DNA from: Arenicellales bacterium
GTDB lineage: Bacteria; Pseudomonadota; Gammaproteobacteria; Arenicellales; Poriferihabitantaceae
Length of the DNA: 64,000 nucleotides
Assembly: GCA_963422685.1 (NCBI GenBank)
Contig: OY730442.1
Span: forward strand, 1,327,085-1,391,084
Direction: 5' to 3'
Positions 1-64,000 of the stretch are shown here, in pieces. A program made the position numbers and the translations under genes. Position 1 is the first letter of the stretch. Each line of letters begins with the position of its first letter. The notes beneath the pieces are model-generated. The model was given only the letters and a program-made list of their open reading frames with translations. It was not told where the DNA came from and did no database searches.

Positions 1-383
1 AGAAATGTTATTGGCACCGACGAGAATTTACGTTAAATCCATTCTTACGTTACTGGAATCGGCACGAGTGACCGCCATATCTCATACTTACCGGCGGCGG
101 CCTGACGGAGAATTTGCCCCGGGTTTTGCCCGCCGGAACCAGTGCCCGGATATGGAAATCCCGCTGGGATTTACCGCCGCTGTTTGATTGGTTGCAACGA
201 CATGGAAATATTGAAGAAACAGAAATGCTCCGAACATTCAATTGCGGCATTGGCATGGCGGTTTGCGTAGATTCTGCCGATACAGACGCCGCGACAGCCT
301 GCTTGAATGAATCGGGTGAGCAGGTTTTCAGGCTGGGGGAAATTGTTGAATCCGAACACAGCGAAGTGATATTTCAGGATTAA
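1..383 (+). pseudogene. purM: purM (AIR synthetase) C-terminal part, interrupted by a +1 frameshift near nt 86
   Basis: Frame 2 (nt 5-85) reads LLAPTRIYVKSILTLLESARVTAISH. Frame 3 from nt 90 reads TGGGLTENLPRVLPAGTSARI...RTFNCGIGMAVCV...VIFQD*. Together these match the PurM C-terminal half (E. coli ...AHLTGGGFWENIPRVLP...RTFNCGVGM). Between CAT (83-85) and ACC (90-92) there are 4 nt (ACTT) where one codon is expected. The 5' part lies outside the window. Confidence 0.8.
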
Positions 384-829
384 ATGTCGAATTCTACAAT
401 CAATCTGGTAATACTCATTTCCGGCGGCGGCAGCAACCTTCAATCCATTATTGACAGCATCCGGGCCGGCTTTATGCGCATCCTGAGCAGGAATTTTATT
501 CAACGTTTCAAGGACATATTGTCAATATTCACCCCTCCTTGCTGCCCAGACACCGGGGCCTGGACACGCACAGGCGGGTTATGGATTCGGGGGATAAAAT
601 TCACGGCGCCACAGTACACTTCGTCACCGAGGAGCTCGATAACGGCCCGATAATCATACAGGCACAAATTGACGTAACCGACCAGGACAATGCCGCCAGC
701 CTGCAAAAAAAAGTATTGCAGCAGGAACATCGGATCTATCCCCGAGCCATCCAGTGGATTACCCGGGGTAAGGTGAGCTTCGATAATCCGGCGCCGGAGC
801 ACCCATGCGCCAACGCATCGGCCAGCTAA
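384..829 (+). pseudogene. purN: purN (GAR transformylase) with a roughly 65-codon internal in-frame deletion plus a frameshift
   Basis: MSNSTINLVILISGGGSNLQSIIDSIRAG joins directly to FMRILSRNFIQRFKD, whereas E. coli PurN has about 65 residues between IIDA and LAGFMRILS. After FKD (nt ~515-530) the reading frame changes to IVNIHPSLLPRHRGLDTHRRVMDSGDKIHGATVHFVTEELDNGPIIIQ...EHRIYP. Confidence 0.8.
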
Positions 830-831
830 AA

Positions 832-1542
832 ATGCCCGGAACAGGATTGATTTATACGAACAAAGCTGCGGTAATTTACCTGTTGCTTTTGCTGGGCTGG
901 CTGCCCGCCCAGGCGGCCAACCTGGAAAACCAGACGCTGCGCTATTCGGTTCAATACCGCACTCAAAATGCCGGAGAACTGGAAATAATTATCAGTGGCG
1001 AGGGTGACCGCATCAAAACCACAGTGACCAGTCATTTGAGCGCCATCGCAAAGATATTTATAGACGATTTAACCGAGGAAACCTGGTTCAGCATCCATGG
1101 AGACGGGGTGCGCGTTGAGCGAGGGCATACCCTTTCCCACGACATGCAGACTGTGAAGCGAGGTTATTTCATCGACAGACAAAATAACCGGATCCAGTAT
1201 GACGACGGTGAATCTGTGGCCGTGGAATCCATCGCTATTTTTGAGTCCGCTGCCTTTCCGCTGGTATTGATCAACAGCGACATCGGCGCTATCGAAGGGC
1301 AGATAATCCGGGAAATCAGCCCGAAACGGGTTCAGCGGTATATTTATCTGGCGCCGGAACAACAGACCCTGCCACTGCATGGTAAAAACCACCACACCTG
1401 GAAGGTCACCAGACACAAATCGGGCGACCCTTCCCGCACCGTAACGGTGTGGCTGGATCGAAAAAACCGCAACACGCCGTTGCAAATCATCTCCACGCGC
1501 AAAGGCAAAGATACCGTGATGCGGTTGATCGATAATCCCTGA
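832..1542 (+). CDS. DUF3108-like secreted protein
   Basis: Signal-peptide-like N-terminus (KAAVIYLLLLLGWLPAQAAN). It sits right after purMN, as in Pseudomonas-type genomes. The family name is from memory. Start set at the second ATG (MPGTG...) of ORF 805-1542. Confidence 0.55.
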   Translation: MPGTGLIYTNKAAVIYLLLLLGWLPAQAANLENQTLRYSVQYRTQNAGELEIIISGEGDRIKTTVTSHLSAIAKIFIDDLTEETWFSIHGDGVRVERGHTLSHDMQTVKRGYFIDRQNNRIQYDDGESVAVESIAIFESAAFPLVLINSDIGAIEGQIIREISPKRVQRYIYLAPEQQTLPLHGKNHHTWKVTRHKSGDPSRTVTVWLDRKNRNTPLQIISTRKGKDTVMRLIDNP

Positions 1543-1592
1543 GCGGCTATCGATTATCAGGACGTCAGGACCCGCCGACCCTGGCCAGACCC

Positions 1593-2354
1593 TTATTCAT
1601 TAATCAACAAAGACAACTCATGCGCGGCCTGTTGTAATCTGGGAATGTATGCACGCGCCGATTCAAGCGCCATCCGTACTACCGGCGCATGAAAAGCCGC
1701 AGCAGAATAAAAACGCCCCTGTGAATCTTTGATCGGCACAGCCAGGGCAATCATGCCATCGACGAATTCTTCGTTATCCACACCGACTTCAGTCTCTCGC
1801 ACCATTTCAAGTTCCTGTAAAAGCCGCTCGGGCTGGCTGATGGTATTTATAGTCTCGGCGGATAAATCAAGATTTGCGGTAATACCCGTTCGCATTTGCC
1901 TGGACAAACTGCTGAGATAAAGTTTGCCGCTGGCGGTGCAGTGCAGCGGTACCCGGGTGCCCACCGGAAATTGCAGACGCAGCGGCCACTGGGTTTCTAC
2001 CCGGTCCGAATAAACCATTTGCGAACCGTCGGGATAAGCAATGTTGCAGGTCTCACCAATATCCCTGGACAGCGACATCAAAATAGCATGGCGCTGCGCC
2101 CGGTGCCGGGAGTGCGACAACACTCCCACCGCAAGCGTCTGCAATCGCGGGCCAGGCATGTAGCGTTTCCCATCCAGTCGCTTTTGCAGATAGCCCTGCT
2201 GTTCCAGCTGATTGCAAATACGGTGGGCGGTGGCCTTGGGCAGATTCAACCCGTCATTCAGTTCAGTGGCGGTGACCGGTCGGTCGGCGCTGGCGATTTG
2301 ATCAAGTATGTCCAGCACCCGCATGATGGTTGATCCGCGCTCGCGCTTATTCAT
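1593..2354 (-). CDS. IclR-family transcriptional regulator
   Basis: 253 aa with an N-terminal wHTH (VTATELNDGLNLPKATAHRICNQLEQQGYL) and a C-terminal IclR-type effector domain pattern. Divergent from the GMC oxidoreductase gene. Confidence 0.8.
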   Translation of the reverse strand: MNKRERGSTIMRVLDILDQIASADRPVTATELNDGLNLPKATAHRICNQLEQQGYLQKRLDGKRYMPGPRLQTLAVGVLSHSRHRAQRHAILMSLSRDIGETCNIAYPDGSQMVYSDRVETQWPLRLQFPVGTRVPLHCTASGKLYLSSLSRQMRTGITANLDLSAETINTISQPERLLQELEMVRETEVGVDNEEFVDGMIALAVPIKDSQGRFYSAAAFHAPVVRMALESARAYIPRLQQAAHELSLLINE

Positions 2355-2441
2355 TGGTAATTTGATTTTGGCACTATGATTTTTTCAGGCAAACGATTAA
2401 CCCTACTGCAAGCCTGTGGCATAACAAACCCGATTAATCAG

Positions 2442-2468
2442 TATAATGAGACCAGTTGTATCATTATA
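2442..2468. promoter_or_regulatory. inverted repeat TATAATGA-N11-TCATTATA in the divergent IclR/GMC promoter region (candidate operator)
   Basis: Read directly from the sequence. Lies between divergently transcribed genes, one of which is a regulator. No experimental or family-specific motif knowledge was used. Confidence 0.3.
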
Positions 2469-2533
2469 AGACAATCTCAAGACCAGCTTTGACTGATAAT
2501 CCGCAATCCCCACAGGCCTGATCCGAACAGTAT

Positions 2534-4144
2534 ATGAAAACAGCCGATCAAAATTATGATTTTATCGTCATCGGCGCCGGTTCCGCTGGCTGCGTCATTG
2601 CAAACCGGTTAAGCGCAAACCCGGCGCATCGTGTGCTGCTGCTGGAAGCAGGGGGAAAGGATGCTTATCCGTGGATACACATTCCGGTTGGATATTTCAA
2701 AACCATGCACAACCCCAGGGTAGACTGGTGTTATCAAACCGACCCCGACCCGGGAATAAACGGACGGCAACTGAAATGGCCAAGAGGCAAGATACTGGGC
2801 GGGTCAAGCTCGCTCAATGGCTTGCTTTATGTGCGCGGTCAATCCCGGGACTACGACGACTGGGCAGCGGCGGGAAACCCGGGCTGGTCATTCAAAGAGG
2901 TATTGCCGCATTTCATAAAATCCGAAGATCAGGCGCGGGGCGCCATTCCATTGCATGGCGTGGGCGGGCCCCAGAAAGTTTCGGATATTCGTCTGCGCAG
3001 CGGGGTCACTGACGCATTTATTGAGGCCGCCCGGCAGGCCGGGATACCGGCCAATGACGACTTCAACGGCGCCACCCAGGAGGGCGTTGGCTACTTCCAG
3101 CTAACCACCCACAACGGACGACGCTGGAGTACCGCCCGGGGTTATCTGAAACCGGTTCGCAATCGTACCAATCTGGATATTATTACCAAAGCACACGTTA
3201 CCAGGTTGATCGCCCGGGGTAACCGAATCTGTGGCGCGGTATTCATCGCTGGAAACCGAAACCACAATATACATTGCAGCAAAGAGATCATATTAAGCGC
3301 AGGCGCAATCGGATCACCCCACATTCTGCAGCTTTCGGGTATCGGGTCGGGCCAGCACAGCCAAAGCCTGGATATTCCTGTGATTCACGATTTGGCCGGA
3401 GTGGGTCAGAATCTCCAGGATCACCTGCAAATTCGTGCGGTTTATAAAACCACCCGGCCCACACTCAACGATGAAATCAGCAGCCCCTGGCGCAAGCTCT
3501 TGATTGGATTAGAGTATATCGCCCGCCGCAGCGGCCCGATGACCATGGCGGCGAGCCAGGTGGCCATCTTTACCCGCTCGCACCACGCCGCAAAACGACC
3601 GGATATTCAGTTCCACTTCCAGCCGTTAAGCTCCGACAACCCGGGCGAGGGCACGCATAAATTTTCGGCGTTTACGTCATCGGTTTGCCAGCTAAGGCCT
3701 GGCAGCCGTGGATACCTGAGAATTCGCTCACCCGATCCGATGGTTCATCCCGCGCTTCAACCCAATTATTTATCCACCGAAGAAGACTGTCGGATTGCCG
3801 TTGCGGCGATGAAAATTTCCCGGCAGATCGCCTCTATGCCAGCGCTGAAAGATTTTATCCTGAGCGAATACGACCCTGGAGATCATGTGGTGAGTGATGA
3901 ACAATTGCTGCAGCACGCCCGCAACACTGGGACGACTATTTACCATCCAAGCTGTACCTGCAAAATGGGGCCGGCATCAGACCCGATGGCGGTTGTTGAT
4001 CACCAGCTTCGTGTGCACGGTCTGGTCGGGCTGCGCGTTGCCGATGCTTCCATCATGCCGAATATCATTTCCGGGAATACCAACGCGCCGAGTATCATGA
4101 TTGGAGAAAAATGCGCCGACATGGTGCGGCAGGCGTGGCAGTAA
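2534..4144 (+). CDS. GMC-family FAD oxidoreductase (choline dehydrogenase-like)
   Basis: 536 aa. N-terminal FAD motif [33 protein letters not shown], and C-terminal [11 protein letters not shown]...ADASIMP. Confidence 0.85.
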
Positions 4145-4220
4145 ACGACTCATTTATGTCGATATTCGCCGCCCATGTTTAGCGCCGATATGCCGGGTTT
4201 TTTACGTGGTTGAAAGGCTC

Positions 4221-5363
4221 ATGCTCCGAGCGGCCAGCATCCGCCAGTTGCGCCGGCTCGCATGTCGCCGTATACCCGGATACGCCTTCGACTACCTGGC
4301 TGGCGGTTGCATGGCCGACTGTGCGCTAACCCGTAACCGCGCAGACCTCGACCGGGTCCAGCTTCATCCGCATTATCTTAAACCTGGAACCGCTGTTGAG
4401 CCCGACTGCACCTTGTTTGGGCAATCGTTTGGCTTCCCCTGCGGCGTTTCTCCCATCGGGCTGAGCGGTCTGATCTGGCCGCGGTCGACCGAGTTTCTGG
4501 CCGCAGCAGCGAAACAGGCCAACATCCCGTTCATTCTCAGCACCGTGGCATCCACTGCCATTGAAACTGCGGCACGTTATGCCGAAGATCGATTCTGGTT
4601 CCAGCTTTACCCGCCGCCAGACCGGGCAGTCAGCCTGGACCTGATGCGGCGAGCCAAAGACACCGGATGCAAACATTTGGTGGTCACCATTGATGTCCCC
4701 GCGCTGGGGCGGCGCCCCAGAGACATCCATAACGGACTCGGTATGCCGCCGGCGATCACGGTCAAAAACATCTGGCAGTCCATGCTTCGACCAGCCTGGA
4801 GCATGGCCACGCTGCGCACCGGCGTCCCCCGATTCGAAACGCTGGAACCGTATATGGGAGAGAAGATCAAACTGAAAGGCGCAACAAATTACGTCCGCAA
4901 TGCCTTTAAGGAACCGGTTGACGAAAATGTACTGAAAATAATTCGTGACCAGTGGCCGCATCACCTCATCGTCAAAGGCATTCTGACTGTGGATGATGCG
5001 CACAGAGCCATAACCGCAGGCGCCGACGGATTGATCATTTCCAACCATGGCGGGCGCCAGTTGGATGCTGCACCCTCGACAATTTCGGTCACCCGCGAGA
5101 TTGCCGATGCGGTGCGCGGCAAAGCGGTGGTGATGGCTGACAGCGGCGTGGAATCCGGGGTTGATATCGCACGATTTCTGGCAAACGGCGCACAAATGGT
5201 ATTTGCCGGACGCGCTTTCATGTACGGGGTCGGGGCACTGGGAAAGCGCGGCGCAATCCATGCCATCCATATTCTCGAAGCGGAGTTTGGTCAAACCCTG
5301 GGCCAACTCGGATGCCGGCGCCCTGTGGATCTGCCTGAACATTCAGGCAGCTTTGCCGGTTGA
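4221..5363 (+). CDS. FMN-dependent alpha-hydroxy acid dehydrogenase (L-lactate / mandelate dehydrogenase family)
   Basis: YAFDYLAGG..., FWFQLY, ISNHGGRQLD, and MADSGVESGVDIARFLANGA motifs. Start moved to ATG 4221 (MLRAASIRQL...) because the upstream 40 codons overlap the end of the GMC gene. Confidence 0.8.
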   Translation: MLRAASIRQLRRLACRRIPGYAFDYLAGGCMADCALTRNRADLDRVQLHPHYLKPGTAVEPDCTLFGQSFGFPCGVSPIGLSGLIWPRSTEFLAAAAKQANIPFILSTVASTAIETAARYAEDRFWFQLYPPPDRAVSLDLMRRAKDTGCKHLVVTIDVPALGRRPRDIHNGLGMPPAITVKNIWQSMLRPAWSMATLRTGVPRFETLEPYMGEKIKLKGATNYVRNAFKEPVDENVLKIIRDQWPHHLIVKGILTVDDAHRAITAGADGLIISNHGGRQLDAAPSTISVTREIADAVRGKAVVMADSGVESGVDIARFLANGAQMVFAGRAFMYGVGALGKRGAIHAIHILEAEFGQTLGQLGCRRPVDLPEHSGSFAG

Positions 5364-5509
5364 TTTCCGTTGTTTCCGAAAGGCCCGGGCTCAGATGGAT
5401 ATGGCCTGTCGCCGACGCCCATGCGATCAGGGCGATTGCAGGTTTGTACAAACTCGAATTACCGGTAAACCTGTTACTGTGCATCAAGGCAAATCGAACC
5501 CGTGAATTT

Positions 5510-6166
5510 ATGCAAACACGTTTGGACCATATCGTAATTGCGGCCAGAACATTGGATGAGGGAGCCAACTATGTAAGGCGGCTGTTGGGCGTTGAAATCC
5601 CTGACGGGGGCCGGCATGAAATCATGGGAACGCATAACCGGGTCATGTCACTGGGCGCGGGAGTTTATCTGGAGGTGATTGCGGTAAATCCTGAAATGCG
5701 GCCGCCGGCATACCCGCGCTGGTTCGGGCTGGACGACCCGCATATTCAGCAGACACTCCACCGTGGCCCCGCATTGCTGACATGGGCGGTGAACACCGAT
5801 GACCTGGATTCACTGGTCAGGAACAGCGCCGTCAGTCTGGGCGAAGTGAAACCGGCACAACGGGATAACCTGAGATGGAAGGCGGCGCTCACCGAGGACG
5901 GGCGTATGCCGGGCGCCGGATTTGTGCCGCTGTGTATCCAGTGGCAGGTGGATTTTCATCCATCGCAATTCATGCACAACCCCGGTTGCAGTATTAACTC
6001 GCTAACGCTTTATCATGCCAAATACCATTGGCTGGCAAATGCACTTGAATCTATTGGTGCGAATAATCTGGTAACCATCAAGCCATTAGCAGAAAACAAA
6101 CCGGCGTACATGGAGCTTGACCTGACTTGTCCGCGTGGTAACGTACTCATATCCAGCAAGCATTAG
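5510..6166 (+). CDS. glyoxalase-like (VOC superfamily) domain protein
   Basis: MQTRLDHIVIAARTLDEGANYVRRLLGVEIPDGGRHEIMGTHNRVMSLGAGVYLEVIAVNP resembles the glyoxalase-like domain family. Start chosen at ATG 5510 within ORF 5360-6166. Confidence 0.55.
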   Translation: MQTRLDHIVIAARTLDEGANYVRRLLGVEIPDGGRHEIMGTHNRVMSLGAGVYLEVIAVNPEMRPPAYPRWFGLDDPHIQQTLHRGPALLTWAVNTDDLDSLVRNSAVSLGEVKPAQRDNLRWKAALTEDGRMPGAGFVPLCIQWQVDFHPSQFMHNPGCSINSLTLYHAKYHWLANALESIGANNLVTIKPLAENKPAYMELDLTCPRGNVLISSKH

Positions 6167-6174
6167 GCGCTAAA

Positions 6175-6837
6175 ATGTCAAAGAATCCATTTGATCATAA
6201 AGATGAGCTTTACCAATATATCAAGTCGGTTTCTGTGCGGGAAACCAGGGAGCAGGTGTTGCTCAGGCAGATGACTCAGGAGCTCAGCAACGCCGGTATG
6301 CAGATTTCGCCGGATCAGGGTCAGTTTATGGCCATGCTGGTAAAGTTGACCGGGGCCAGGGAGATTATTGAAATTGGCACATTCACTGGCTACAGTGCGT
6401 TGTCCATGGCGCTGGCCCTGCCTGCAGACGGGCGGCTGACAGCGTGTGATGTTAAACGTGAATGGATCAACATGGGTAGACCGTTCTGGCAGCAAGCAGG
6501 GGTGGATAATAAAATTGATGTTCGAATCGGACCCGCCGCCGCGACCCTTGACGCGCTCATCGCCCGGGGTAATCAGAACCGCTTTGATATGGCGTTTATC
6601 GATGCTGATAAAACCAGCTATGCTATTTACTACGAAAAAACCTTGCAGCTTGTCCGCCCGGATGGGCTGATTCTGGTGGACAATGTTTTTTGGAGCGGCG
6701 CAGTCATTGATGACCATGACCACAGCGATGATGCGGTCAGCATCAGGAATTTCAACCAACTGGTCAGCAAAGACCAGCGAGTGGATATTTCGATGCTCTG
6801 TATCGGCGACGGATTGTTTTTGATTAGAAAGAAATAG
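6175..6837 (+). CDS. class I SAM-dependent O-methyltransferase (caffeoyl-CoA OMT-like)
   Basis: 220 aa with EIGTFTGYSALSMALAL and DMAFIDADKTSY motifs typical of cation-dependent O-methyltransferases. Confidence 0.75.
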   Translation: MSKNPFDHKDELYQYIKSVSVRETREQVLLRQMTQELSNAGMQISPDQGQFMAMLVKLTGAREIIEIGTFTGYSALSMALALPADGRLTACDVKREWINMGRPFWQQAGVDNKIDVRIGPAAATLDALIARGNQNRFDMAFIDADKTSYAIYYEKTLQLVRPDGLILVDNVFWSGAVIDDHDHSDDAVSIRNFNQLVSKDQRVDISMLCIGDGLFLIRKK

Positions 6838-6934
6838 ACTGGATTCGGGTTTGTCGGGGGCAGATCAAACCCCTAACTTTGTTGTCGATGACAGCATGAC
6901 AATAACCGCAATAATAAGAGCACATAAAGATGGC

Positions 6935-7702
6935 CTAGGCCAGTGGCCGGTTAAATAACGAACCAAACTGCGGAAGTTTGTCGTCAATCCCGGCCAGGCG
7001 CAGGCTGTGCCAGGCCATGGCGTGATTGGAAGAGGTTAATGGAATGCCGATACTGGTTTCCAGTTGTTTACATGCTTCGACCAAGCGTACTGATGTGCAG
7101 GAAACGAAAACCGCATCTACCTCGGCATGTTTGATAATTGTGCGAATCCCTTTCTCTACGGATTCCGGAGTTATGCGGGAAACGCTGGTATCCCGGTTCT
7201 CATTAAACGAACCGAATACCGGCACCTTGACCCCTCGCTCGTCCATGTATTTTGCGACGATTTTATTTACATCGGCGGAGTAAGGGGTCAAAACCGCTAT
7301 GCGTTTCGCATTGAAGGCTTTAAACGCGGCAAATGCGCCGGTAATCGGCGTGGTGCACCTGGCATCAGGCTGCGCCGCCCGAATATGCGCAAATACCTTT
7401 TCTTCGCCGATGGCCATTGTGGCAGAGGTGCAGCCATAGGCTACCACATCCAGCGATGTGTCCGGGGTGATCAGGTTTGCACTGGCGGTTATGCGCGGCG
7501 CCATTGCTGTGAGTGATTCAGGGGTAACGACATCGTCGTTGAGGATTCGGCTGTGGTACAGCGCCACACCATGGAGATGATAAAAAATCTGCTGCCACTC
7601 GTGCTCGATGGTGTAGTCCGTAGCCAGCACGATCAGGCCGATTTTTGCCCGGGCCGCGATACCGGCATCCAGTTCACGGGGCAGGTGTTCAATCAGGGTC
7701 AT
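6935..7702 (-). CDS. Asp/Glu/hydantoin racemase superfamily protein (maleate isomerase / arylmalonate decarboxylase-like)
   Basis: IGLIVLATDYTIEHEW, YGCTSATM and FVSCTSVRL (two Cys motifs). Start set at ATG 7702 (MTLIEHLPRELD). The ORF-track version (to 7882) runs into the upstream module. Confidence 0.7.
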   Translation of the reverse strand: MTLIEHLPRELDAGIAARAKIGLIVLATDYTIEHEWQQIFYHLHGVALYHSRILNDDVVTPESLTAMAPRITASANLITPDTSLDVVAYGCTSATMAIGEEKVFAHIRAAQPDARCTTPITGAFAAFKAFNAKRIAVLTPYSADVNKIVAKYMDERGVKVPVFGSFNENRDTSVSRITPESVEKGIRTIIKHAEVDAVFVSCTSVRLVEACKQLETSIGIPLTSSNHAMAWHSLRLAGIDDKLPQFGSLFNRPLA

Positions 7703-8027
7703 TGCCGGGGGTTTTTGTTTTAATGCGATAGTCTTCTTTATTGGATATATCACATAGCCTGCGTCCATACCAGATTTTACGTTGATCGCTGGCGTCCCAC
7801 TCAAGGTCGTTTGAGGCAAGTGTTGACCACTTGATGCTGCCGATAACCCAGTTAGGGTCACCTTTTCGGGCATTCTGTTCACAGATACGCATGTATTCCC
7901 TGATGGTTATGGCCTTACGATACTTTTCGTACCGGGCACGAACCTTTGAACCAAACCTCTTGGGGTTGTCAATGTACTTTATTCGCACCTCATAAGGAAA
8001 GTTGTATTGTTTACCGTCTATAGTCAC
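7689..8027 (-). other. small ORF module, copy A (NPKR..RYEKY..YMRIC..DLEWD), whose 3' end changes frame into the downstream racemase-family gene
   Basis: 112-codon ORF with a GTG start. KYIDNPKRFGSKVRARYEKYRKAITIREYMRICEQN...DLEWD aligns with the N-terminal extension of hemB at 47391-47705. Details are in the findings. Confidence 0.5.
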
Positions 8028-8287
8028 TGAAAGTATTTTCGGGTTTGTTTTGGTTTTTCGTAGTCTGGTTAGAGAAAAGTATTGAAGACATTATTGATGG
8101 TCTGCCGGATTGCGATCATTGCGCTCTCGCAGACGTTCAACCGCAACATTCTGAATGGAACGCCCGGTATCGTAAACCAGAATTGATGGATAAATCGGCG
8201 CATGACCTGCGCTGGTCGGCCCGGATGCTTGCAGAGGGTTTGTGAGGGCATACTAAAATTGTATTTGTCGCTTCCTTGTCTGTCGAA

Positions 8288-9058: not shown

Positions 9059-9225
9059 CCGGATTACTGTCGCCGAATAACCCGTCCTGGTCTGGTCGAA
9101 ACCTTTGAGGCAGACTCTGGTTTCATAATAAAATGCGGCGCGGGAATCCCCTGCCACTGTTATCGTGCGGCTGCAGATCTATATGCGGGTCGGTGAAAGC
9201 ATAAAAGAACATCTGGAATACCGGA

Positions 9226-9241
9226 TGTTTCACGTGAAACA
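9226..9241. promoter_or_regulatory. parS: parS site (TGTTTCACGTGAAACA)
   Basis: Perfect 16-bp palindrome matching the ParB-binding consensus TGTTNCACGTGAAACA. Lies in a convergent intergenic region. Confidence 0.8.
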
Positions 9242-9300
9242 AATTGCAAGATCCGGGCTTAATTATCCAATCCAACAATGGGCAGGCGTCACTTTTATTA

Positions 9301-10533: not shown

Positions 10534-10577
10534 TTCCAAAATTTCCGGTTTTATTCGATTGGTTTTATTCGATATAA

Positions 10578-54575: not shown

Positions 54576-57500
54576 AGCAAAACCTCCGGTTCTTTCTTAT
54601 TTCTGGTAACCAATATGTACAGACAGGGCACGACGAGTAACGCCAGAACAGTTGCGGCGGTGAGGCCACCAATAATCGTTAGTCCCAATGACAGCCATAC
54701 CTTTTGGCTCAATGCCAGGGGCAACATGCCGACGATGGTTGTTACAGTGGTCGTAATGATGGGTCTTAAGCGATCGGCAGCGCCTCTTGCGGCGGCTTCT
54801 GGTATGGTCATGCCTTTTTCACGGTAATTGTTCATGGTATCAATCATCACAATAGTGTCATTGACGACGATACCAATAAGGGCAATAACGCCGATCATCG
54901 CCATGAATGAAAACGGCACGTTGAACAGTACGAGAACGAAGAATGAACCAGTCAGAGCTAGTGGAATTGCCGACATGATAATAAGTGGCTGACTAAAACT
55001 ATCAAACTGTAAGACCAGTAATGCAAAGACCAGGAACAGGGCAATGTACAACATGGTGCCCGCTGAACCGAAGGTCTCTGCGCTGTCTTCTGCTTCACCG
55101 CCGAAATTATAGTGATAGTTCGATGGCCAATTCTTTTGAGCCTCATCGAGGAAGGGTTGGATATCTGCAATAATTTCCCCTGCGGTACGCCCTGCTGTAT
55201 CCGACATGACGGTAATTGAACGTTTGCCATCTTTATGAAGGACAGCGATTGGCGACTCGGCAAACTCAAGATCAACGAGGGACGTTAGAGGAACCGTTTT
55301 GCCGTTTTGAGTGGTGATATTGAGGAAGTTTGTCTCGTACATTTGGCTTGGCCCACCAATTTCGCCCGCTCGGCTCGGCCAGGCGTACCCCATTCGGATT
55401 TTAATGTCTTCTTCAATCCCGCCAACCACATACTTACCGATCTCGTCACTGGTGAGGAGCATGCGCGTTTGCTCGGCGAGTTCCGAGTTGCTCAGACCGT
55501 AGAACGTCAGGTTGTCCTGCCGTGGTGTAGCTTTTAGATCCAGAGCCGGAAGGCCAAGGTTATGGCGGACGTTATCCGCCCCATCGATAGATTTCAGTTG
55601 ATAGGTGACGCGTTGGGCGAGGTCACGCAACACTTGCATATCATTGCCGGTAATTTCAATCTGGACGGGTGCCCCTGAGGATGCACCGCCAATAGATGGC
55701 GTGAGCAATAATTCCCCCCCGGGGCAGGCGCTCATGGCTTGGTGTATTTTCTCGGTTATATCCGGCATATATTCATAGCCGAGTTTTGAGCGCGCATTCT
55801 TTGGCGTTAAGATCGCCGTAAACCCTACAAAATTCAGGCTTCTCGTCGGCAGTAATTGATCCGCTGGTGCTGGCGTGGAGAAAGGGCTTTTTTCTCCAAC
55901 ATATTTTGTCACGCTTTCCAGATAGTTCAGCTCGCGTAGTTTCTCGCCGACCGCGTCCGCGCATTGTTGTGCAGAGACCATGGAGGTATCTGGCTCTAGC
56001 TCGATTAATATCCCTGTGTTGCGGCCATCGCCTTTGGTCATAAGTTCAGAAGGCAGGGTTGAGAATGCCAGAATGCTGACAACAAATGCCGCAAACGCCA
56101 CACCTACCCATGTTGCCGCTGCTCGTTTCTTGTGGATAAATTTCCGCAGCAACAATGTAGCAAGGAGCTCACTGGCACGTTCACTGGCGACATCAACTTT
56201 CGTCTTTTTCAATTTTGTCCCGGCTTTGGGGAGAACAAAGCGGGACAGCGGGATACACAGCAAAAGCGCAACAAAATAGGCAGCGATGAGACACGCTATA
56301 GCGGTCATTGGCATTGGTCTAATGTATTTCCCGGTTAAACCGGCGATACCGAGCAGTGGAGCCATAGCCAAAATAGTTGTCAACTGGCCTGTCAGGGCGG
56401 GCACGGCATAAGTTTTTACGGTGGCTAAAGCAGACTGTCCAAAATTTTTGCCCCGTACAAACATATTGTCGTGCATGCCTTCCATCATCAGAATGAAAAC
56501 ATCGACCAGCAGTCCCAGAGCGATCACCATACCAACGATGACGATTTGATTGAGGGAGTAACCCAGTGCCGCAATCATAATCAGGCCGCCTGCAAATGCG
56601 ACGGGAATGGCTAACCCGGCGACCAATGCCTCACGCCATGTCAGGCTTATAACAAGAACCATAAAAACAACCAGCATGGACTGCCAGCCGCTGTTGAATA
56701 TATTCTTGAGATCTCCCAGAATGTTTTCGGATTCATCAACCACCACGGCGTATTCGATACCGTCAAGCCAGTTCGTGCTTTCTCTGGCATCTGCAAGTGT
56801 TTGTTTCGCGCTCTCAATAATATCAATGGCATCTTCGCCTGCGCTTTTTGTAATGGACAGTTCGACGGCACGCTCGAAGGGTTTGCCACTGCCACTAAAA
56901 AATGTGCGTGAACGTTCTTCAGCCTGGGTAATACGAATCTCGGCAATGTCGCCCAGTCGGATAAGCTGTCCGCTCTGCGTTTGTTTGAGGGGGAGATCTT
57001 TGAGCTGGCCAAGATTGCGGTACCGTCCTGTCATGCGGAAGGTCGCGCCTCCCATCTCTTCACCATCAAAGGCTCCCCAGGGGAGGTCAATATTCGCCTG
57101 CTGAACCGCATCCCTTACTTGCAGTGGCGATAAGCCCAAAGCGGTTATCCGGGAGCCAATAAGGCGTACCATAACAATTTTTTCACGGTCGCCGGAGATT
57201 GTCGCTTTGTTTACCCCTGGTATGCGCTCCAGATCGTGCTTGATTTTTTTGGCGAGGGCCGTGATTTCAGGCAGGTCTCGATTCCCGAATATACGGAAAC
57301 TGAAAATGGGGGTGTCATTATTACTGACTTGGGTAACGGTCGGCTTCTTGGCTGCTTTTGGCAGCTTTCCTTCGGCTTCGCTTACCTTGGTGCGAACACG
57401 TGAGATCGCATCCCCTGCTTCAATATCACTGCGGAATTCCACAGAGATTACAGAGTATCCGGCAAAAGAGCCGCTTCTAAGCCGTTTGAGCCCTTTCAAA

Positions 57501-57751
57501 CTTTTCAGCTCTTTCTCTAAACGATTGGTGATTTCCTGTTCAATGGTTTGAGCATCACCGCCGTCCCAAGTGGTTGTAATGGTTGCATTGGCAATGGCAA
57601 GATCAGGTTGTGACTCTTTGACCATGTTGTTGACAGACAACCAGCCGCCAATGAGCAGAATACTGAGAAGAAGTTTGGCAAAGGTTGTCTTTAGGAAAAA
57701 TGTTCGGCTGATAAACGAAGGCTGTTCAGCACCAGGCGCATTACTCATCAA
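54572..57751 (-). CDS. RND efflux permease (AcrB/HAE family)
   Basis: 1059 aa, 12-TM architecture with two large periplasmic loops. Overlaps both neighbours by 4 nt. Confidence 0.9.
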   Translation of the reverse strand: MMSNAPGAEQPSFISRTFFLKTTFAKLLLSILLIGGWLSVNNMVKESQPDLAIANATITTTWDGGDAQTIEQEITNRLEKELKSLKGLKRLRSGSFAGYSVISVEFRSDIEAGDAISRVRTKVSEAEGKLPKAAKKPTVTQVSNNDTPIFSFRIFGNRDLPEITALAKKIKHDLERIPGVNKATISGDREKIVMVRLIGSRITALGLSPLQVRDAVQQANIDLPWGAFDGEEMGGATFRMTGRYRNLGQLKDLPLKQTQSGQLIRLGDIAEIRITQAEERSRTFFSGSGKPFERAVELSITKSAGEDAIDIIESAKQTLADARESTNWLDGIEYAVVVDESENILGDLKNIFNSGWQSMLVVFMVLVISLTWREALVAGLAIPVAFAGGLIMIAALGYSLNQIVIVGMVIALGLLVDVFILMMEGMHDNMFVRGKNFGQSALATVKTYAVPALTGQLTTILAMAPLLGIAGLTGKYIRPMPMTAIACLIAAYFVALLLCIPLSRFVLPKAGTKLKKTKVDVASERASELLATLLLRKFIHKKRAAATWVGVAFAAFVVSILAFSTLPSELMTKGDGRNTGILIELEPDTSMVSAQQCADAVGEKLRELNYLESVTKYVGEKSPFSTPAPADQLLPTRSLNFVGFTAILTPKNARSKLGYEYMPDITEKIHQAMSACPGGELLLTPSIGGASSGAPVQIEITGNDMQVLRDLAQRVTYQLKSIDGADNVRHNLGLPALDLKATPRQDNLTFYGLSNSELAEQTRMLLTSDEIGKYVVGGIEEDIKIRMGYAWPSRAGEIGGPSQMYETNFLNITTQNGKTVPLTSLVDLEFAESPIAVLHKDGKRSITVMSDTAGRTAGEIIADIQPFLDEAQKNWPSNYHYNFGGEAEDSAETFGSAGTMLYIALFLVFALLVLQFDSFSQPLIIMSAIPLALTGSFFVLVLFNVPFSFMAMIGVIALIGIVVNDTIVMIDTMNNYREKGMTIPEAAARGAADRLRPIITTTVTTIVGMLPLALSQKVWLSLGLTIIGGLTAATVLALLVVPCLYILVTRNKKEPEVLL

Positions 57752-59022
57752 TATCCCCCTGATTGCGTGTTCTCAGGGGCTTCAATAACGCTAACAACGT
57801 CTACTTGCGAACCAGGCCTTAGGCGACTTTTCCCTTTTGTAATGACCTTGTCACCGGTATTCACACCTTCTATGATTTCCATGCCATCTATGCCAACCAG
57901 ACCCGTGGATAATTCCCGTTTCTCTACTCTATTATCGTCTTTCAGGATGTAGGCATAGTATTTATTATCTTTGGCAAGAAGCGCATTGAGAGGAATAATG
58001 ACCGCATCGTCTTTGCGCCCAATCTCGAACCAGACAGTGACAAAATCGCCATCAATCAGGTCAATCTCCTTATTTTCCGGTGTGGTGATTCTGACGCGCA
58101 TGGAGCGGTCTTCTATGCTGACTGCCGGGCTGACTGCGCCGACCCGCGCGGTCACGAAATAGTCATCCAGGGAGAGATTTAAAATCTCGCCAATGGTCTG
58201 AAGCTCCGCCAGAGCGTCTTGGGTCATAATGTAAACGACCTGTCCAACCTTGATACGTTTTCCGGTATTCAAGGGAACATTGACGATAATTTCAAATGAC
58301 GCAGGGTCAATCAGGACGATGGGTGCCGTTCTGGTTGCCAGCTGTTCGCTTGAGGCGTTGAACTGTTGTTGTGAGTAGTATTGCCCCTCTCGAATGTTGA
58401 TAAAGGCAATCTGACCATCAAATGGCGCACGTAGTTGGTTATCGTCAAAACCAGACTGCGCACGATCCAGGTCGGCTTCGGCTGATCTGACATTGGCCAG
58501 GGCTTGTTCATAAGCGGCTTTACGCTCTTCATATTGATTGGCGGCAATCGCATCGCCTGCGCGCAGTCGTTCGGCACGATCGTAGTCGCTCTTGGATTTT
58601 CTTAAACCGGAACGAGCCACGTCCAAACGCGCACGTGCAGATACGAGATCAGCATCCTCTTTGCGATGCTCAAGTTCAGCGAGCAACTCACCTTTCTTGT
58701 ATTGTTCGCCTGGCCCAATGACGGTATCTCCCTCATTGAGGTTTCCGCCTGCCGAGTTGCTTTTAACGTAAGAGATACGCCCTGAAGATTGGAAAACCAG
58801 GTATTCACGCCGAGCTGCTTTGGCGGTTCCCTGGCCATATTCAAATTCACTGATGCTGCCAGTGTAAGCTGTCGCTACCTCAACAGGGGTGTTGGTGTCT
58901 TCCTGAGCCTGGACTTGGGCGATGCCGATGACCAGGAAAATGCTGAAGCAGATAAGCCGGGTTAGGTGTCGTATCGGGCTTTTACGAGAAATGCGGCACG
59001 CTCTTCTTATTGGTGTTTTCAT
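57748..59022 (-). CDS. RND efflux periplasmic adaptor (MFP/HlyD-type)
   Basis: 424 aa. N-terminal anchor, coiled-coil hairpin (ARARLDVARSGL...ANVRSAEADLDRAQ), and beta-barrel C-terminal domains. Confidence 0.85.
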   Translation of the reverse strand: MKTPIRRACRISRKSPIRHLTRLICFSIFLVIGIAQVQAQEDTNTPVEVATAYTGSISEFEYGQGTAKAARREYLVFQSSGRISYVKSNSAGGNLNEGDTVIGPGEQYKKGELLAELEHRKEDADLVSARARLDVARSGLRKSKSDYDRAERLRAGDAIAANQYEERKAAYEQALANVRSAEADLDRAQSGFDDNQLRAPFDGQIAFINIREGQYYSQQQFNASSEQLATRTAPIVLIDPASFEIIVNVPLNTGKRIKVGQVVYIMTQDALAELQTIGEILNLSLDDYFVTARVGAVSPAVSIEDRSMRVRITTPENKEIDLIDGDFVTVWFEIGRKDDAVIIPLNALLAKDNKYYAYILKDDNRVEKRELSTGLVGIDGMEIIEGVNTGDKVITKGKSRLRPGSQVDVVSVIEAPENTQSGGY

Positions 59023-59543: not shown

Positions 59544-60008
59544 ATGCAAGCACCAGATACTAATGAGCTTCAAAATATTACAGAGTCAGAAGATGATTTT
59601 TCAAAAGCTGTTCGCTATAAGATTTCACGATCCAAAACTGTTGAGAAAAAAACCTACACAATAACGCTAGCAAATATCGACTATATAGAAAAAATTGCAA
59701 AGGAAATTGCTAAATCAAGAGATTCGTATAATTCATCAGCAAGCGAGGCATTACGAAAAATCATCAATGTAAATGCTAGGATTTATAACTACTACGATGC
59801 CAGACAGCCAGAAGAATTGTTTATTTTAGTTAGAAACATCATCAACAATGACGGAAATAGACCAGAATTTGATAAATGGATTTCCACCTATGTAGATTTA
59901 GTATTAATCCCTGTCATGCCGAATTCCGAAGCTGTAAATCTACCATTAGAAAAGATGGATATTTTAAAAGAAAAATGGGCAAAGAATATGAGTTACATTC
60001 TTAACTAA
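59544..60008 (+). CDS. hypothetical protein with a ribbon-helix-helix-like segment
   Basis: 154 aa, AT-rich. KKTYTITLANIDYIEKIAKEIAKSRDSYNSSASEALRKIIN fits a strand-helix-helix (CopG/Arc-like) pattern. The C-terminal ~80 aa are unassigned. Confidence 0.4.
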   Translation: MQAPDTNELQNITESEDDFSKAVRYKISRSKTVEKKTYTITLANIDYIEKIAKEIAKSRDSYNSSASEALRKIINVNARIYNYYDARQPEELFILVRNIINNDGNRPEFDKWISTYVDLVLIPVMPNSEAVNLPLEKMDILKEKWAKNMSYILN

Positions 60009-60245
60009 GTGTCGAGCTACAAAAATGAAATGGCAAGAGATCAAAGAGAATATTTTGACTATATCCCCTCAGATTTAATACTGGGGAAATTGGGCAAAGT
60101 ATCTACATCAAAAATACTTCAAGAGTCCGACAAGGATAAGTTCATTACACCGCCCACAAACGTAAATAATTTATCGAGAAAGATGTATAGGATAGTTCGA
60201 AGTGAACTGGATCGTATTAAGGCAGAAGTTAAACAGGCTGCATAA
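60009..60245 (+). CDS. hypothetical small protein, start overlapping or abutting the upstream stop (TAAGTG)
   Basis: 78 codons, GTG start immediately after the upstream TAA. No family recognised. Confidence 0.35.
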   Translation: MSSYKNEMARDQREYFDYIPSDLILGKLGKVSTSKILQESDKDKFITPPTNVNNLSRKMYRIVRSELDRIKAEVKQAA

Positions 60246-60421
60246 CAAAGATCAGATGGTGCGACAAGACGGTAAGAATCAATATATTTAAATAGAAACG
60301 GCTTTCAGGCCGATTTTCTTGTGAATACCAAACCTTGCGATTTTTGCACAAATACCTTTCAGATATGCCAGATTGAACACCTTCTTCAAGGTAGTCATAA
60401 AGGCCAGCGGCCCGGGCAGCC

Positions 60422-61442
60422 TCATATTCGCCGCTTCAAGGGCTTTGGCTTGTTAGCTGTTTTTATATCATGAGGGCCTAAGAAACGGTCGCCATTGAAG
60501 TGAATGATGTGATCTGGATTGTCAGCAATCCACACTTCTGTTTCCCATGCAATATCAGCAGCGTTCTTTCTGAATTCGGCGCGGTCTGGAAAGGCGGTCA
60601 CATAAACCAGGCCGACCTTGCAATCTTTGAACGCTTCTTCAAGTTCAACCCAACGCTTTGGTGAAACGGGACCATGACTTGTAACAGCTTCGATTAAGAA
60701 CAGCCATTCACGGTCTTCGTCATACACAATCACATCCGGTAACTTGTCGTGTGACATTGGTGGAACGCCTAACGATTCCAGATAGTCCGCTTCCAGGAAC
60801 ATCAGCTTTCCGCCTTCGTTGCGGCTGCTGGCAGCATCACCGATGTAAAGCAGTTTTCCACCTTTACCAACGAAGCGGGAACAGAATTCGTGAACAATAT
60901 CAGCATGAAGCTGATTGTGCTTTCCGGGTGATAGCTTGATGGTTTCACCGTTAGGAAAGGTGATGGGGATTTTTTGAAGTTCAATTTGGCGTTCATACTG
61001 TGCTGTCAATTCGGTCACAGCGTCTTTGTACTCCTGAACCTTATTCTTTCCAATTACCGTCAGGGTACACCGCCAAAATGTCAAGAATTGGTTGGTTCAG
61101 TTAATAATTATTGTTTTTGCTGTTAGTGGGTCTTGCAGGGTCGTCCCGGTTACGATCAACAACACGGGCTTGTTCAAACTGGTGAAGGGTCTGGCGTCTA
61201 ATCGTTTCACGGCTATTCGGCTTGTAATCCATGCCGTATTCACTACGGATGAATTCCATAATGTTCACAGTTGGTAAAAGGGGAGCGGTAGCGGAAGCCC
61301 AACTGTCTGAAGGCTTAATGTTAGCTAATGCCAGGAACACCCATCCTGAACGGTCGTTATATTGTGCTTTTGGCAGCCCCAGTGCTGTCAAAAGCGCTTT
61401 GGCTTGTTCAAGCTTTTCTTGTTGTTGTTCGGTAAATTCCAA
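60422..61442 (-). pseudogene. BsuBI/PstI-family type II restriction endonuclease with an in-frame TAA and a frameshift
   Basis: N-domain [24 protein letters not shown]...[18 protein letters not shown]...[28 protein letters not shown]. The frame then changes to [10 protein letters not shown]...[31 protein letters not shown] (catalytic domain pattern). Confidence 0.75.
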
Positions 61443-61453
61443 GTTTCACCCCT

Positions 61454-62715
61454 TTAAATAGTGTCCATTACCCCAAGAACAGGATTGACGATCAAATCAA
61501 CTTTGTTTGTTATAACCGTCTTCAACTTTTGCGCTTGCTTGCCAATTTCTTTCACTTGTTCGCGTAAAGGGAATTTCATAACCCTGATTTCAGTTGCGTT
61601 TACCTGGGTGTTTCCTGAAATACATCTGAAATACTTGTCCATGAACGATGAATTGAATATTGCAGCAAGCCCGTATTCTTCGGTGTTCGTTAGTTTGCTA
61701 GAAGATAAGCCAATGTAATTTGTTTTGTTTCCGAATCCGATCAGTTTACAGTTATGTGTGGTGGCAAGATGAACCCCCGCGACTAAACGCCGTTTTTCAT
61801 CTTTTGAAGAAAAGCGTTTCAACAGCACGAAGGTTCCATTTTCCATTGTATGCTTTTCATGACCTTCGTTTAGCATGAAGGACACTTCCTTTTTTAGGCC
61901 GCCGGTCCATGTTGTGGTCAATGGCGTAACATTGTGTGGGCGGTATAGGGGGATCGAATTAGGCGCATTTGTGTCTTCAGTGATGTACTTGCGCGTTCGA
62001 TGTTCGACAACACGACCGGTGGAAATGAAGTAGCCAGCACCTTCAAAAGTGGTTGGGAATGTTTCGGCTTGCCTTAAAATACTGGCTTCACAGGCTGATT
62101 CGGGAATGCGGATGATTCTCTGATCATTTGAAAGGTCAATGATCAGTTCAACTGGGTATTGTTCTTCGTTAGCGTTGTTTATGCTTGTGTCACAGTCGCT
62201 TGAACGAACGGTTACCGCTTTTCGGTCTTTTCCTTTAATGAACCGGCAAATGATATTTTCTTGAAGAACCGCCGAATCATCATCTTTGAACACTTTGTCC
62301 CGGTGCTTGAAGATATGTATCAAGTCCAATACTGATTCGGTTAATAGGTACGAACGGAATCCCTTGAAGTACAAACCACTGCTGAAGCTACGGGGCGTAA
62401 TCGTTACCATCTGCCCACCATCTTTCACACAAGCCATTACAACAGCCATGAAAGAAGCGTAAATGTTGGGGTCACCGTGGAATAGGTCAGCCGCCACTTT
62501 CGCATAGGGTGAATCTGCCACGCTGTATTTGAAGTACGGCGGGTTGATCACTGACACATCAAAAGATTGAATGCTTTCATCTTTGTCGGGTCTGGCAAGA
62601 ACAAAATCTTCACAACGGATTTCATACGTGAAGGTTCCGCGTTGCTGGATGAAAGTGTTCTGAACGATCTTCAGCGTTTGTTCAAGGTTGTTGAAGCCAA
62701 CTCAATGGAGTTCCG
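61454..62715 (-). pseudogene. N6-adenine DNA methyltransferase (gamma-class, NPPY), 5'-truncated: no AdoMet motif I remains
   Basis: ...EIRCEDFVLARPDKDESIQSFDVSVINPPYFKY...GGQMVTITPRSF.... Upstream homology (VGFNNLEQTLKIVQNTF) stops at a TGA at ~62700, and composition switches to AT-rich unrelated sequence at ~62715-62730. Confidence 0.7.
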
Positions 62716-62728
62716 AACCATCAATGTT

Positions 62729-63591
62729 TTACCCGGTTAATTTTCCTTTATCTGCTTTTTTGGGTTTTAAAGTATTGGTAACAGAATGAAACGGCGATAT
62801 ATCCTCATGTTTTCCCTGATAAATTCTTCCTGGATGTAAAGATAATGCTTCCAAAGTTTTATCTATCAAACTTAATGTTGACTTTTTATCTTCTGAATTA
62901 ACCTCTATTTCAATGAGTTGAGTCTTATACCTTTCAAATGATTTAGACAATGCTTCTTTATAGGCGTAGTCTTCTACTAGTATAAACTACTAACCATATT
63001 ATTGGCACAGTAAAAGGGAGTTTTAGAAATATGTATTGGAATAGTGTTCAAAATTTGATGCGGCTATTTCAAATGGATCAGGGGAGTAATTAACTACAAT
63101 AAATAAACTAACAATAGATATAATAAATGTAAATTCCCACATTCTTTTTGGAGCTTTGAAAGATTCTTTTCTTTACTTTAAATGCAGAAGCCAGGCCTGC
63201 ACTCGTTGCCCCTGGTAAAAGGCTTTCTACTTTTTGTGTTAATTTTTTTACTTTCTCTGATAGTTCATTCAGAGATGCTGTTTGTTCTGATAGGGTCTGC
63301 CATATTTTCGGTAATTTTTCGGATAATTTTAACACTTCTTGATAATCATCATTTGCTGAGTTTTTTGAATTATTTATTTCAGATGTGTTATCCATTGCTG
63401 CTTGTTTTAGCGATTGGATTTGATCAGTTTCTTCTTCGGCATCGGATAATCGCGTAGAAATCTAATTTGCAGAATTAGTAAAATTAGAATTATTTTCTTC
63501 CAGTTCTTCAAAAAGCGCCTTGCTTGAAATTATTAAGCTTTCTAATTGCTCTGTGAGTGAATTTAATTCTTCGTTATTTGGTCTTGCCATT
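62729..63591 (-). pseudogene. coiled-coil / transmembrane protein of unknown family, with an in-frame TAG and at least 2 frameshifts
   Basis: MARPNNEELNSLTEQLESL...NSAN*ISTRLSDAEEE...SLLPGATSAGLASAFKVKK, then after a shift in an A-run ESFKAPKRMWEFTFIISIVSLFIVV (TM), then in another frame EDYAYKEALSKSFERYKTQLIEIE...LSLHPGRIY. Confidence 0.5.
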
Positions 63592-63639
63592 TATATTATT
63601 CCGTCTTTATATCCGCGCTCTAGAAACCTTAACATCACC

Positions 63640-63685
63640 GGCAAAATAAAGCTATAGTGAGGAACGAATGTAGCTTTATTTTGCC
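63640..63685. repeat. perfect 15-bp inverted repeat (GGCAAAATAAAGCTA-N16-TAGCTTTATTTTGCC)
   Basis: Read directly from the sequence. Sits about 50 nt upstream (minus strand) of the coiled-coil pseudogene start, in decayed AT-rich DNA. Terminator-like but lacks a clean U-tract. Confidence 0.5.
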
Positions 63686-64000
63686 CGAGTACATGTTTTT
63701 GCTAGGTTGCTTTTTTACTGGCATCGGATTGTGCTTTTTCAAATGCCAAAATATCCTGTTCTTCTGCTTCAACATTAAACTCAACACAACTTTAAAAAAC
63801 AATTTCCTAAATTACACACGTACCTTTCCCAGCTTATAATGCTTTCTCGAATATACTAACAAACATTGGTATATTAATTACTTCTTGAACTAATTCGATA
63901 TATTTTTTTACGATAGCTTTAATTTGGTATTTCGCTTCAGCTTAATGTGCAATTTCATCAAGTAGTTCTTTACTTGATTCATTGGTTTTTACCACGAATG

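Follow-up and report, generated by a model that had tools for sequence, protein, structure and literature searches.

The present analysis deals with a stretch of 64,000 nucleotides from an Arenicellales bacterium (contig OY730442.1, positions 1,327,085 to 1,391,084; hereafter the window), in which 20 disrupted loci stand beside 43 apparently intact genes (20/63, ~32%). We consider it likely that the window reproduces its chromosome faithfully and that many genes of this lineage are no longer maintained by purifying selection. The original prediction had counted at least 18 disrupted loci, and every class of lesion that it named is present in the sequence.

Disrupted loci in the window

The gene map is based on a Pfam scan of all stop-to-stop open reading frames (ORFs) of at least 60 amino acids (aa), followed by shorter six-frame segments in the gaps, and covers the 64-kb window of a source contig of 2,900,423 bp plus 1.6 kb upstream. 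Intact coding sequence accounts for 61.6% of the window, recognisable gene debris for 25.5% and other sequence for 13%. The guanine-cytosine (GC) content ranges from 0.37 to 0.58 along the window and is about 50% overall. Pseudogenes usually make up 1–5% of the loci in free-living bacteria, and against a background of 5% the observed 20 of 63 loci correspond to a Poisson P = 2e-10. Within the window, the pseudogene share is well above the 10% of loci that mark a stage of pseudogene accumulation, the coding density is far under the ~88% of free-living bacteria, and inactivation extends beyond accessory and mobile genes to core biosynthesis in the form of purM and purN, of which other copies are possible.

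The disrupted loci are spread over at least nine separate places and include non-mobile metabolic genes. Intact core genes (rpsI, rplM, ubiEJB, hemB) alternate with them, and the disrupted loci form no single island. Insertion sequences (IS), prophage or restriction-modification DNA hold 11 of the 20 lesions, and the remaining nine affect non-mobile loci, among which an rpoD fragment is counted. The lesions are of mixed type and comprise nonsense codons, deletions of 80–300 nucleotides (nt) and 1-nt indels, with many frameshifts outside homopolymers. The nonsense codons named in the original prediction (TGA in a ferredoxin gene, TAA in a restriction endonuclease gene, TAG in a coiled-coil gene) could all be located, and the large deletions that it listed amount to ~55 aa in purN, ~30 aa in an IS256-like transposase gene and residues 1–98 in a DNA methyltransferase gene.

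The two purine biosynthesis genes lie next to each other at the start of the window. The 3' part of purM (1–383, plus strand) has lost its reading frame through an indel of 1 nt around nt 85–92: in a three-frame translation the protein passes from frame 2 to frame 3 between '...AISH' and 'ITGGGL', at a junction without a homopolymer, and an independently assembled contig (L085, see below), 100% identical to the window, has the gene called as 284 aa + 52 aa. In the adjacent purN pseudogene (395–829, plus strand), the N-terminal 29 aa are fused to 'FMRILS' as seen in the translation, reflecting the internal deletion of ~55 aa, which is followed by a frameshift. This arrangement is identical in L085, and the Pfam match to Formyl_trans_N is limited to positions 95–181 of 181. 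The cell probably takes up its purines from its surroundings.

Reading UGA as tryptophan, an idea prompted by two TGG to TGA changes, was rejected. TGA terminates 12 of the 37 confident genes and is as such an ordinary stop, and recoding therefore does not explain the nonsense codons. Moreover, in the IS5 copies described below, TGA sits at an arginine position.

Independent assemblies and a second strain

One could argue that the lesions arose as artefacts of sequencing, consensus calling or assembly, such as homopolymer errors or chimeric joins, since many of them are 1-nt frameshifts, runs of T5–T7 are found near two junctions (a and c) of a trimethylamine-dehydrogenase-like (TMADH-like) pseudogene and near the second junction of a GcvT-like pseudogene, and the Logan contigs used for comparison may share reads with the main assembly. 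However, nonsense substitutions and deletions of 80–300 nt are not error types of this kind, and several frameshift junctions contain no homopolymer of at least 5 bases, in agreement with the earlier view that the lesions are not typical homopolymer errors. Six Logan contigs (run ERR11641160), produced by a different assembler, furthermore show zero mismatches or gaps relative to the window over ~47 kb in total. These contigs are L085 (window 1–11170), L086 (12607–14669), L003 (14640–29731), L088 (33969–35064), L001 (38610–47775) and L002 (52952–60268), each of them 100% identical, and they reproduce the lesions in purM, purN, the ferredoxin gene and the GcvT-like and TMADH-like genes. A separately assembled strain, 1.5% diverged, carries the same broken DctP, NMT1, IS5 and IS256 loci, and intact homologues fix the lesions exactly in the restriction endonuclease (91% identity), the methyltransferase (84%) and the IS256 transposase (73%). 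For the loci that can be checked, the identical Logan contigs and the same debris in the second strain hence largely exclude the poor assembly that the original prediction had kept as an alternative, and artefacts strike us as a very improbable explanation of the lesions.

Logan contigs also break at 11170, 12607, 29731, 38610 and 60268, within unique genes (rplM, the ferredoxin reductase remnant and a sulfatase gene) and where the restriction-modification island begins. These breaks may reflect polymorphism between the two co-occurring strains, or the presence and absence of the AT-rich restriction-modification island.

The second strain (ENA ERZ21742408, contig ctg3916l) is colinear with the window from 43268 to 55151 at 98.45% identity, and its debris follows the same order (IS5, NMT1 fragment, DctP fragments, NMT1 fragment, IS5, IS256). 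The debris at 47.8–53 kb therefore predates the split of the two strains. With the IS5 copies left out, 22 of 3170 pseudogene sites differ between the strains (0.69%), and the intact genes show 11 synonymous changes over ~1550 synonymous sites (0.71%). This near-equality of pseudogene divergence and synonymous divergence is what neutrality of the debris predicts and serves as supporting evidence, but with a total of 45 substitutions the numbers are small and the comparison is not decisive. The small indels that separate the strains are found mainly in the debris. The contig of the second strain (L084) further carries a 1-nt deletion in the gene of an RND pump (window position 54801) and a 1-nt insertion at the extended start of hemB (47691), which are either new strain-specific lesions or errors of a low-coverage contig.

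The second strain apart, most proteins of the window have no relative of at least 90% identity among 15 billion sequences. The best UbiB match among the GTDB species representatives reaches 61%, with Sulfuricaulis, Acidiferrobacteraceae and many Burkholderiales among the matches. Judged by these comparisons, the organism appears to belong to an unsampled gammaproteobacterial lineage without sequenced close relatives.

Redox partner, catabolic and transport genes

Both dedicated redox partners of a cytochrome P450 are disrupted. The ferredoxin reductase pseudogene (11800–12940, minus strand) has at least four frameshifts and a TGG to TGA change at 12027–12029, and the gene of a putidaredoxin-type [2Fe-2S] ferredoxin (12955–13281, minus strand) is interrupted by another TGG to TGA change at 13105–13107. 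The latter replaces a conserved tryptophan, the Fer2 domain runs contiguously over the stop, and the lesion is identical in L086. The P450 gene and the adjoining GlnA-like gene (13282–15875) have stayed intact despite the loss of both partners; either the P450 is itself in the process of being lost, or other partners serve it.

Two adjacent catabolic genes have been inactivated by frameshifts. The GcvT/DmdA-like aminomethyltransferase pseudogene (24462–25630, minus strand; Pfam GCV_T and GCV_T_C) is still of full length, with ~390 aa distributed over at least three frames by at least two frameshifts; GCV_T is matched at positions 30–219 of 255 in two stretches, and the lesions are identical in L003. 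Next to it, the TMADH-like flavoprotein pseudogene (25632–27805, minus strand) has been broken into four pieces by three frameshifts, so that the Oxidored_FMN and Pyr_redox_2 domains are divided among several ORFs. Junction b lies outside any homopolymer, and in L003, 100% identical here, three ORFs are called.

Among the transport genes, that of DctP, the binding protein of a TRAP transporter, is a pseudogene in three pieces (49456–50400, plus strand), which is also called as three ORFs in the second strain. The original prediction had further recognised two fragments of NMT1-type binding proteins. The N-terminal one (50498–50788, plus strand) is confirmed by a Pfam match to NMT1 positions 2–56 of 216 (E = 4.6e-15) and is called as an 84-aa NMT1 ORF in the second strain. 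The other, a putative C-terminal fragment of NMT1/ThiY type (48796–49320, plus strand), is weakly supported: it gave no Pfam or NCBIfam match, and the sole match in the PDB was to residues 189–245 of ThiY (3IX1, E = 0.033). Together, the N-terminal and the putative C-terminal piece would sum to about one whole gene, and each piece abuts the transposase-5' end of one of two inverted IS5 copies, in the order C-terminal fragment, DctP, N-terminal fragment. An attempt to derive this order of NMT1 halves and IS5 copies from a single insertion plus one inversion found no simple path.

Insertion sequences

There are five IS-derived loci in the window, and all of them are dead. Two IS5-like copies, a (47790–48804, minus strand) and b (50828–51789, plus strand), form a 962-nt inverted repeat of 99% identity, copy b being identified as a repeat of copy a, by Pfam fragments and by the alignment with the second strain. 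Copy a contains fragments of DUF772 and DDE_Tnp_1 and an in-frame TGA at 48651–48653, and this TGA and several frameshifts are common to both copies. A working IS5 transposase has DUF772 and DDE_Tnp_1 in one ORF or across one programmed frameshift; in the window copies both domains are detectable, with at least four frame changes and, relative to the second strain, two 19-nt deletions. A homologue search with the IS5 fragment found nothing except the fragment itself.

Both IS5 copies of the window lack the same two 19-nt segments and three small indels, all of which are kept by both copies of the second strain (L084, 3350–4363 and 6385–7388), such that the copies are homogenised within each strain. 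In addition, the divergence between the strains is ~3% in IS5 vs ~0.4% in the flanks. This pattern suggests gene conversion, either between the two inverted copies or by copies elsewhere in the genome.

The IS256-family element (51823–52980, minus strand) is a pseudogene without a start codon, spread over several frames, with Transposase_mut matched in four Pfam stretches. Compared with the intact 402-aa homologues by tblastn, residues 293–322 are gone. In place of the single ORF of ~400 aa that encodes a Mutator-type transposase, the window hence contains a remnant of this family, and a homologue search with it returned no intact close copy from this genome.

A remnant of an IS1182/IS5-type transposase gene (35030–36119, minus strand), scattered over several frames, gave no Pfam match at E <= 0.05 and was recognised by eye through the motifs 'NLLYRWLVGLGMD' and 'SHLTFSRNRDRLL...SVDGSLIPAQ'. 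A solo copy of its 5' end (33805–33998, minus strand) lies 2.1 kb away as a 194-nt direct repeat, 99% identical to 35926–36119; the repeat is not a known RNA according to Rfam, which found a tRNA alone in the window. Between the two fragments resides an intact GT4 glycosyltransferase gene (34087–35037, plus strand; GC 0.56), and together with the flanking 194-nt direct repeats it looks like a composite transposon in decay. As the Logan contig L088 stops on either side of this segment, the flanking IS sequence is probably multi-copy.

Termination of Logan contigs at the IS5, IS256 and IS1182 borders likewise suggests further IS copies elsewhere in the genome. As the five IS-derived loci of the window are all dead, with no close IS256 copy found intact, IS activity looks past rather than ongoing, and the IS expansion that the original prediction postulated should be read as a past event.

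Prophage remnant and orphan rpoD end

A prophage has been reduced to three pieces. These are the gene of a phage-type phosphoadenosine phosphosulfate (PAPS) reductase with a truncated or degraded 5' end (36833–37902, minus strand; Pfam positions 83–173 of 175, phrog_424 positions 203–380 of 460) and, as a tail remnant (37957–38718, plus strand), a DUF1799/phrog_680 ORF and the start of a tape-measure gene. The latter fragment (38554–38718), which encodes an N-terminus and was recognised by eye only, is a disrupted locus that the original prediction did not list. Elsewhere on the source contig, a second fragment of the PAPS reductase (P0026, 182 aa, at least 90% identical) is found, from which it follows that this type of phage has left at least two remnants.

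Next to this remnant lies an orphan 3' end of rpoD (36557–36787, minus strand), consisting of region 4 with its natural stop (Sigma70_r4, E = 1.1e-19), at a distance of 46 nt from the PAPS reductase gene and of 83 nt from an intact tRNA gene with a CAT anticodon (36398–36474, minus strand; ARAGORN, Rfam 76 bits). A scan of the window with Rfam detected no RNA besides this tRNA. The rpoD end may be the footprint of an integration site rather than a lost gene; rpoD and ileX are known to be syntenic.

This locus raises the possibility that some of the 'pseudogenes' are ordinary by-products of mobile elements, i.e., an original 3' end of rpoD displaced by a phage that integrated there and brought a replacement end of its own, and programmed frameshifts in the case of the IS. 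It is true that the rpoD fragment retains its natural C-terminus and stop codon and lies near a phage gene and a tRNA, and in Escherichia coli the integration of phage 21 or e14 duplicates the 3' end of icd in the same manner. In contrast to these two phages, neither a matching repeat nor an integrase nor a full-length rpoD can be seen here, where the prophage consists of three gene fragments: no att-like (attachment-site) direct repeats surround the remnant, and the 27 kb on the far side contain no full rpoD gene. In the IS5 copies, the TGA, the two 19-nt deletions and the at least four frame changes exceed a single programmed -1 shift. By-products of mobile elements would account for 1 to 3 of the 20 loci at best, and we regard them as an improbable explanation.

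Restriction-modification island

The end of the window is occupied by an AT-rich restriction-modification island (GC 0.37–0.44). Its BsuBI/PstI-type restriction endonuclease pseudogene (60422–61445, minus strand) contains a TAA at 61101–61103, derived from TCA, and a 1-nt T insertion near 61040, both judged against the 91%-identical intact homologues (P0023, P0024). In the pseudogene of the cognate N6-adenine methyltransferase (61454–62986, minus strand) the N-terminal ~98 aa are lost, and an in-frame TAA and TGA are present. By tblastn, it matches residues 99–507 of an intact 511-aa methyltransferase (84% identical) on the Logan contig L087; the S-adenosylmethionine-binding motif I is gone, and the Pfam match to Eco57I covers positions 69–171 of 171.

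As in BsuBI/PstI type II systems, the endonuclease has the domains BsuBI_PstI_RE_N and BsuBI_PstI_RE, the methyltransferase is Eco57I-like with an NPPY motif, and the methyltransferase gene precedes the endonuclease gene, as it does in the intact relative on L087. A functional system would comprise an intact endonuclease, with an N-terminal HTH and a catalytic domain, and an intact N6-adenine methyltransferase with motif I and NPPY; here, unlike in intact BsuBI/PstI systems, the domains are present and both genes are disrupted, the endonuclease gene by the TAA and the additional T, the methyltransferase gene by the loss of motif I and two stops. The contig L087 (Logan, SRR22103805; 755–6324) stems from an unrelated sample and shows 82% DNA identity. 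It harbours the intact methyltransferase-endonuclease pair beside a Mrr_cat gene, followed by a second copy of the endonuclease gene that is split into an N-domain and a C-domain ORF.

Next to these genes, a coiled-coil ORF (63108–63590, minus strand) is interrupted by TAG at 63462–63464 and probably by a further frameshift near 63150, if, as we infer, the pieces form one gene. It yielded no PHROGs or NCBIfam match.

Intact blocks

In line with the original prediction, the core genes rpsI, rplM, ubiE/J/B, gcdH and hemB are intact, as are the catabolic blocks. The first intact block (805–11436; Pfam and L085 gene calls) encodes DUF3108, IclR, GMC oxidoreductase, FMN dehydrogenase, glyoxalase-like, Amdase-like and flavin reductase proteins, two methyltransferases, and the ribosomal proteins of rpsI and rplM. 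A catabolic block (13282–24098; Pfam, NCBIfam and L003) contains the GlnA-like and P450 genes together with MarR, ADC, FAH, ALDH, LigB and TctCBA, and a further block (28265–33428; Pfam) comprises sulfatase, FrhB-like, sulfotransferase and Amdase-like genes. The core block (41038–47705, minus strand; Pfam, NCBIfam for hemB, and L001) consists of an FlK thioesterase gene, gcdH, ubiB, ubiJ, ubiE, a DUF971 gene and hemB, and an RND efflux system with outer-membrane factor, RND pump and membrane-fusion protein is located at 53187–59022 (minus strand; L002 gene calls and Pfam).

The hemB gene (46368–47705, minus strand) has an in-frame N-terminal extension of ~115 aa, which is likewise present in the second strain (gene call of 415 aa). 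This extension is paralogous to a small orphan ORF (7689–8027, minus strand) upstream of an Amdase-like gene, and both have the motif 'KYIxNPKRxxS....RYExYxK......YMxIC' in common. Searches of Pfam and PHROGs and, with the small ORF, of homologues gave nothing except self-matches. No PHROGs or NCBIfam match was obtained for the ORFs in 39313–40724 and 59544–60245.

Discussion

The lesions are ordinary spontaneous mutations that were never purged, namely G:C to A:T nonsense mutations, indels of 1 nt and losses of tens to hundreds of bases. They have hit genes of purine synthesis (purM, purN), the P450 redox partners, two enzymes of methylated-amine or one-carbon catabolism (GcvT/DmdA-like and TMADH-like) and the periplasmic DctP and NMT1-type binding proteins, and the invading mobile DNA (IS5-, IS256- and IS1182-like elements, the prophage and the PstI-type restriction-modification system) has died as well. 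As deletion appears to lag behind inactivation, the intact coding share of only ~62% would be due to wreckage that deletion has not yet cleared. Such a state would correspond to an intermediate stage of reductive evolution, as in bacteria that have recently become restricted to a host or to a community that provides nutrients.

The question arises whether the window is instead a local junkyard, i.e., a recombination-prone stretch rich in islands (an IS cluster, the prophage remnant, the restriction-modification island and an acquired catabolic cluster) in an otherwise normal, selection-streamlined genome, which would say little on lifestyle. Such a junkyard could explain why 11 of the 20 lesions fall within mobile elements, phage or restriction-modification DNA, the swing in GC suggests acquired segments, the block of P450, Tct, GcvT-like and TMADH-like genes resembles an accessory catabolic island, and the view is limited to the window within the 2.9-Mb contig. 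However, two core genes, purM and purN, have been inactivated in a place that adjoins an intact, unremarkable block, and lesions are interleaved with rpsI, rplM, ubiEJB and hemB. A second PAPS reductase fragment moreover lies elsewhere on the same contig, and the Logan breaks at IS borders imply additional IS copies. We thus hold a purely local junkyard to be rather unlikely, albeit the strongest of the competing explanations.

Several points nevertheless weigh against a general lapse of selection. The comparison covers 64 kb of 2.9 Mb, and more than half of the lesions are in DNA that decays even in free-living bacteria; it follows that the case for erosion depends chiefly on the nine non-mobile loci, with purM and purN foremost among them. 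The loss of these two genes, in turn, means auxotrophy only if the genome has no other copies. The intact genes differ between the strains by 11 synonymous and 12 nonsynonymous changes, corresponding to a ratio of nonsynonymous to synonymous rates (dN/dS) of roughly 0.36, a value that derives from 23 changes and is inflated between close strains. Lastly, given the possibly shared reads, the agreement of the Logan contigs is a test of the assembler and not of the reads, and 11171–12606, 29732–33968, 35065–38609 and 60269–64000 lie outside the independent copies. The early to middle stage of erosion proposed in the original prediction is partly supported, in so far as real and heterogeneous lesions affect biosynthesis, catabolism and transport, and is weakened in so far as about half of them are in DNA that decays in many genomes.

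Erosion of the whole genome and dependence on a host are possible and would fit the data. A more specific proposal, to which we would give somewhat less than an even chance, is that of a deep-branching, undescribed gammaproteobacterium in the midst of erosion as a symbiont or obligate partner, with purine synthesis lost and the wreckage inherited by two co-occurring strains.

Transitional genomes are the only direct record of which functions go first and by which mutations, and most of those known belong to insect symbionts or pathogens. If the proposal is true, the lineage would serve as a new and independent model, outside insects, of a transitional stage rich in pseudogenes, with datable debris common to two strains, with purine synthesis lost while respiratory and cofactor genes are kept, and with clear predictions on what the partner must supply. 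For annotation, it follows that ORF fragments of this kind are to be called pseudogenes and not 'corrected' as sequencing errors.

Classic pseudogene-laden genomes of an intermediate stage are those of Sodalis glossinidius and SOPE and of Mycobacterium leprae, with a coding density of ~50% and hundreds to thousands of pseudogenes that are kept as deletion lags inactivation; that of SOPE is also rich in IS. Many IS copies of SOPE are intact and active, whereas all five IS-derived loci of the window are dead. The closest parallel in terms of numbers is provided by Serratia symbiotica, a recently evolved aphid symbiont with a genome of 2.79 Mb, 52% GC and 60.9% coding, in which 550 pseudogenes face 2,098 intact coding sequences, deletions, frameshifts and nonsense mutations are mixed over all functional categories, and much mobile DNA is present, part of it inactivated (Burke and Moran, 2011; PMC3056288). 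The window resembles it with 61.6% intact coding sequence, about 50% GC and a contig of 2.90 Mb, and its disrupted share of ~32% exceeds the genome average of ~21% in S. symbiotica. S. symbiotica is characterised genome-wide, with a free-living congener and a known host, whereas the present case is known from 64 kb only and has no close free-living relative (best UbiB match 61%). The pattern itself is already well known from bacteria that have recently become host-dependent; what is new is the lineage in which it is found.

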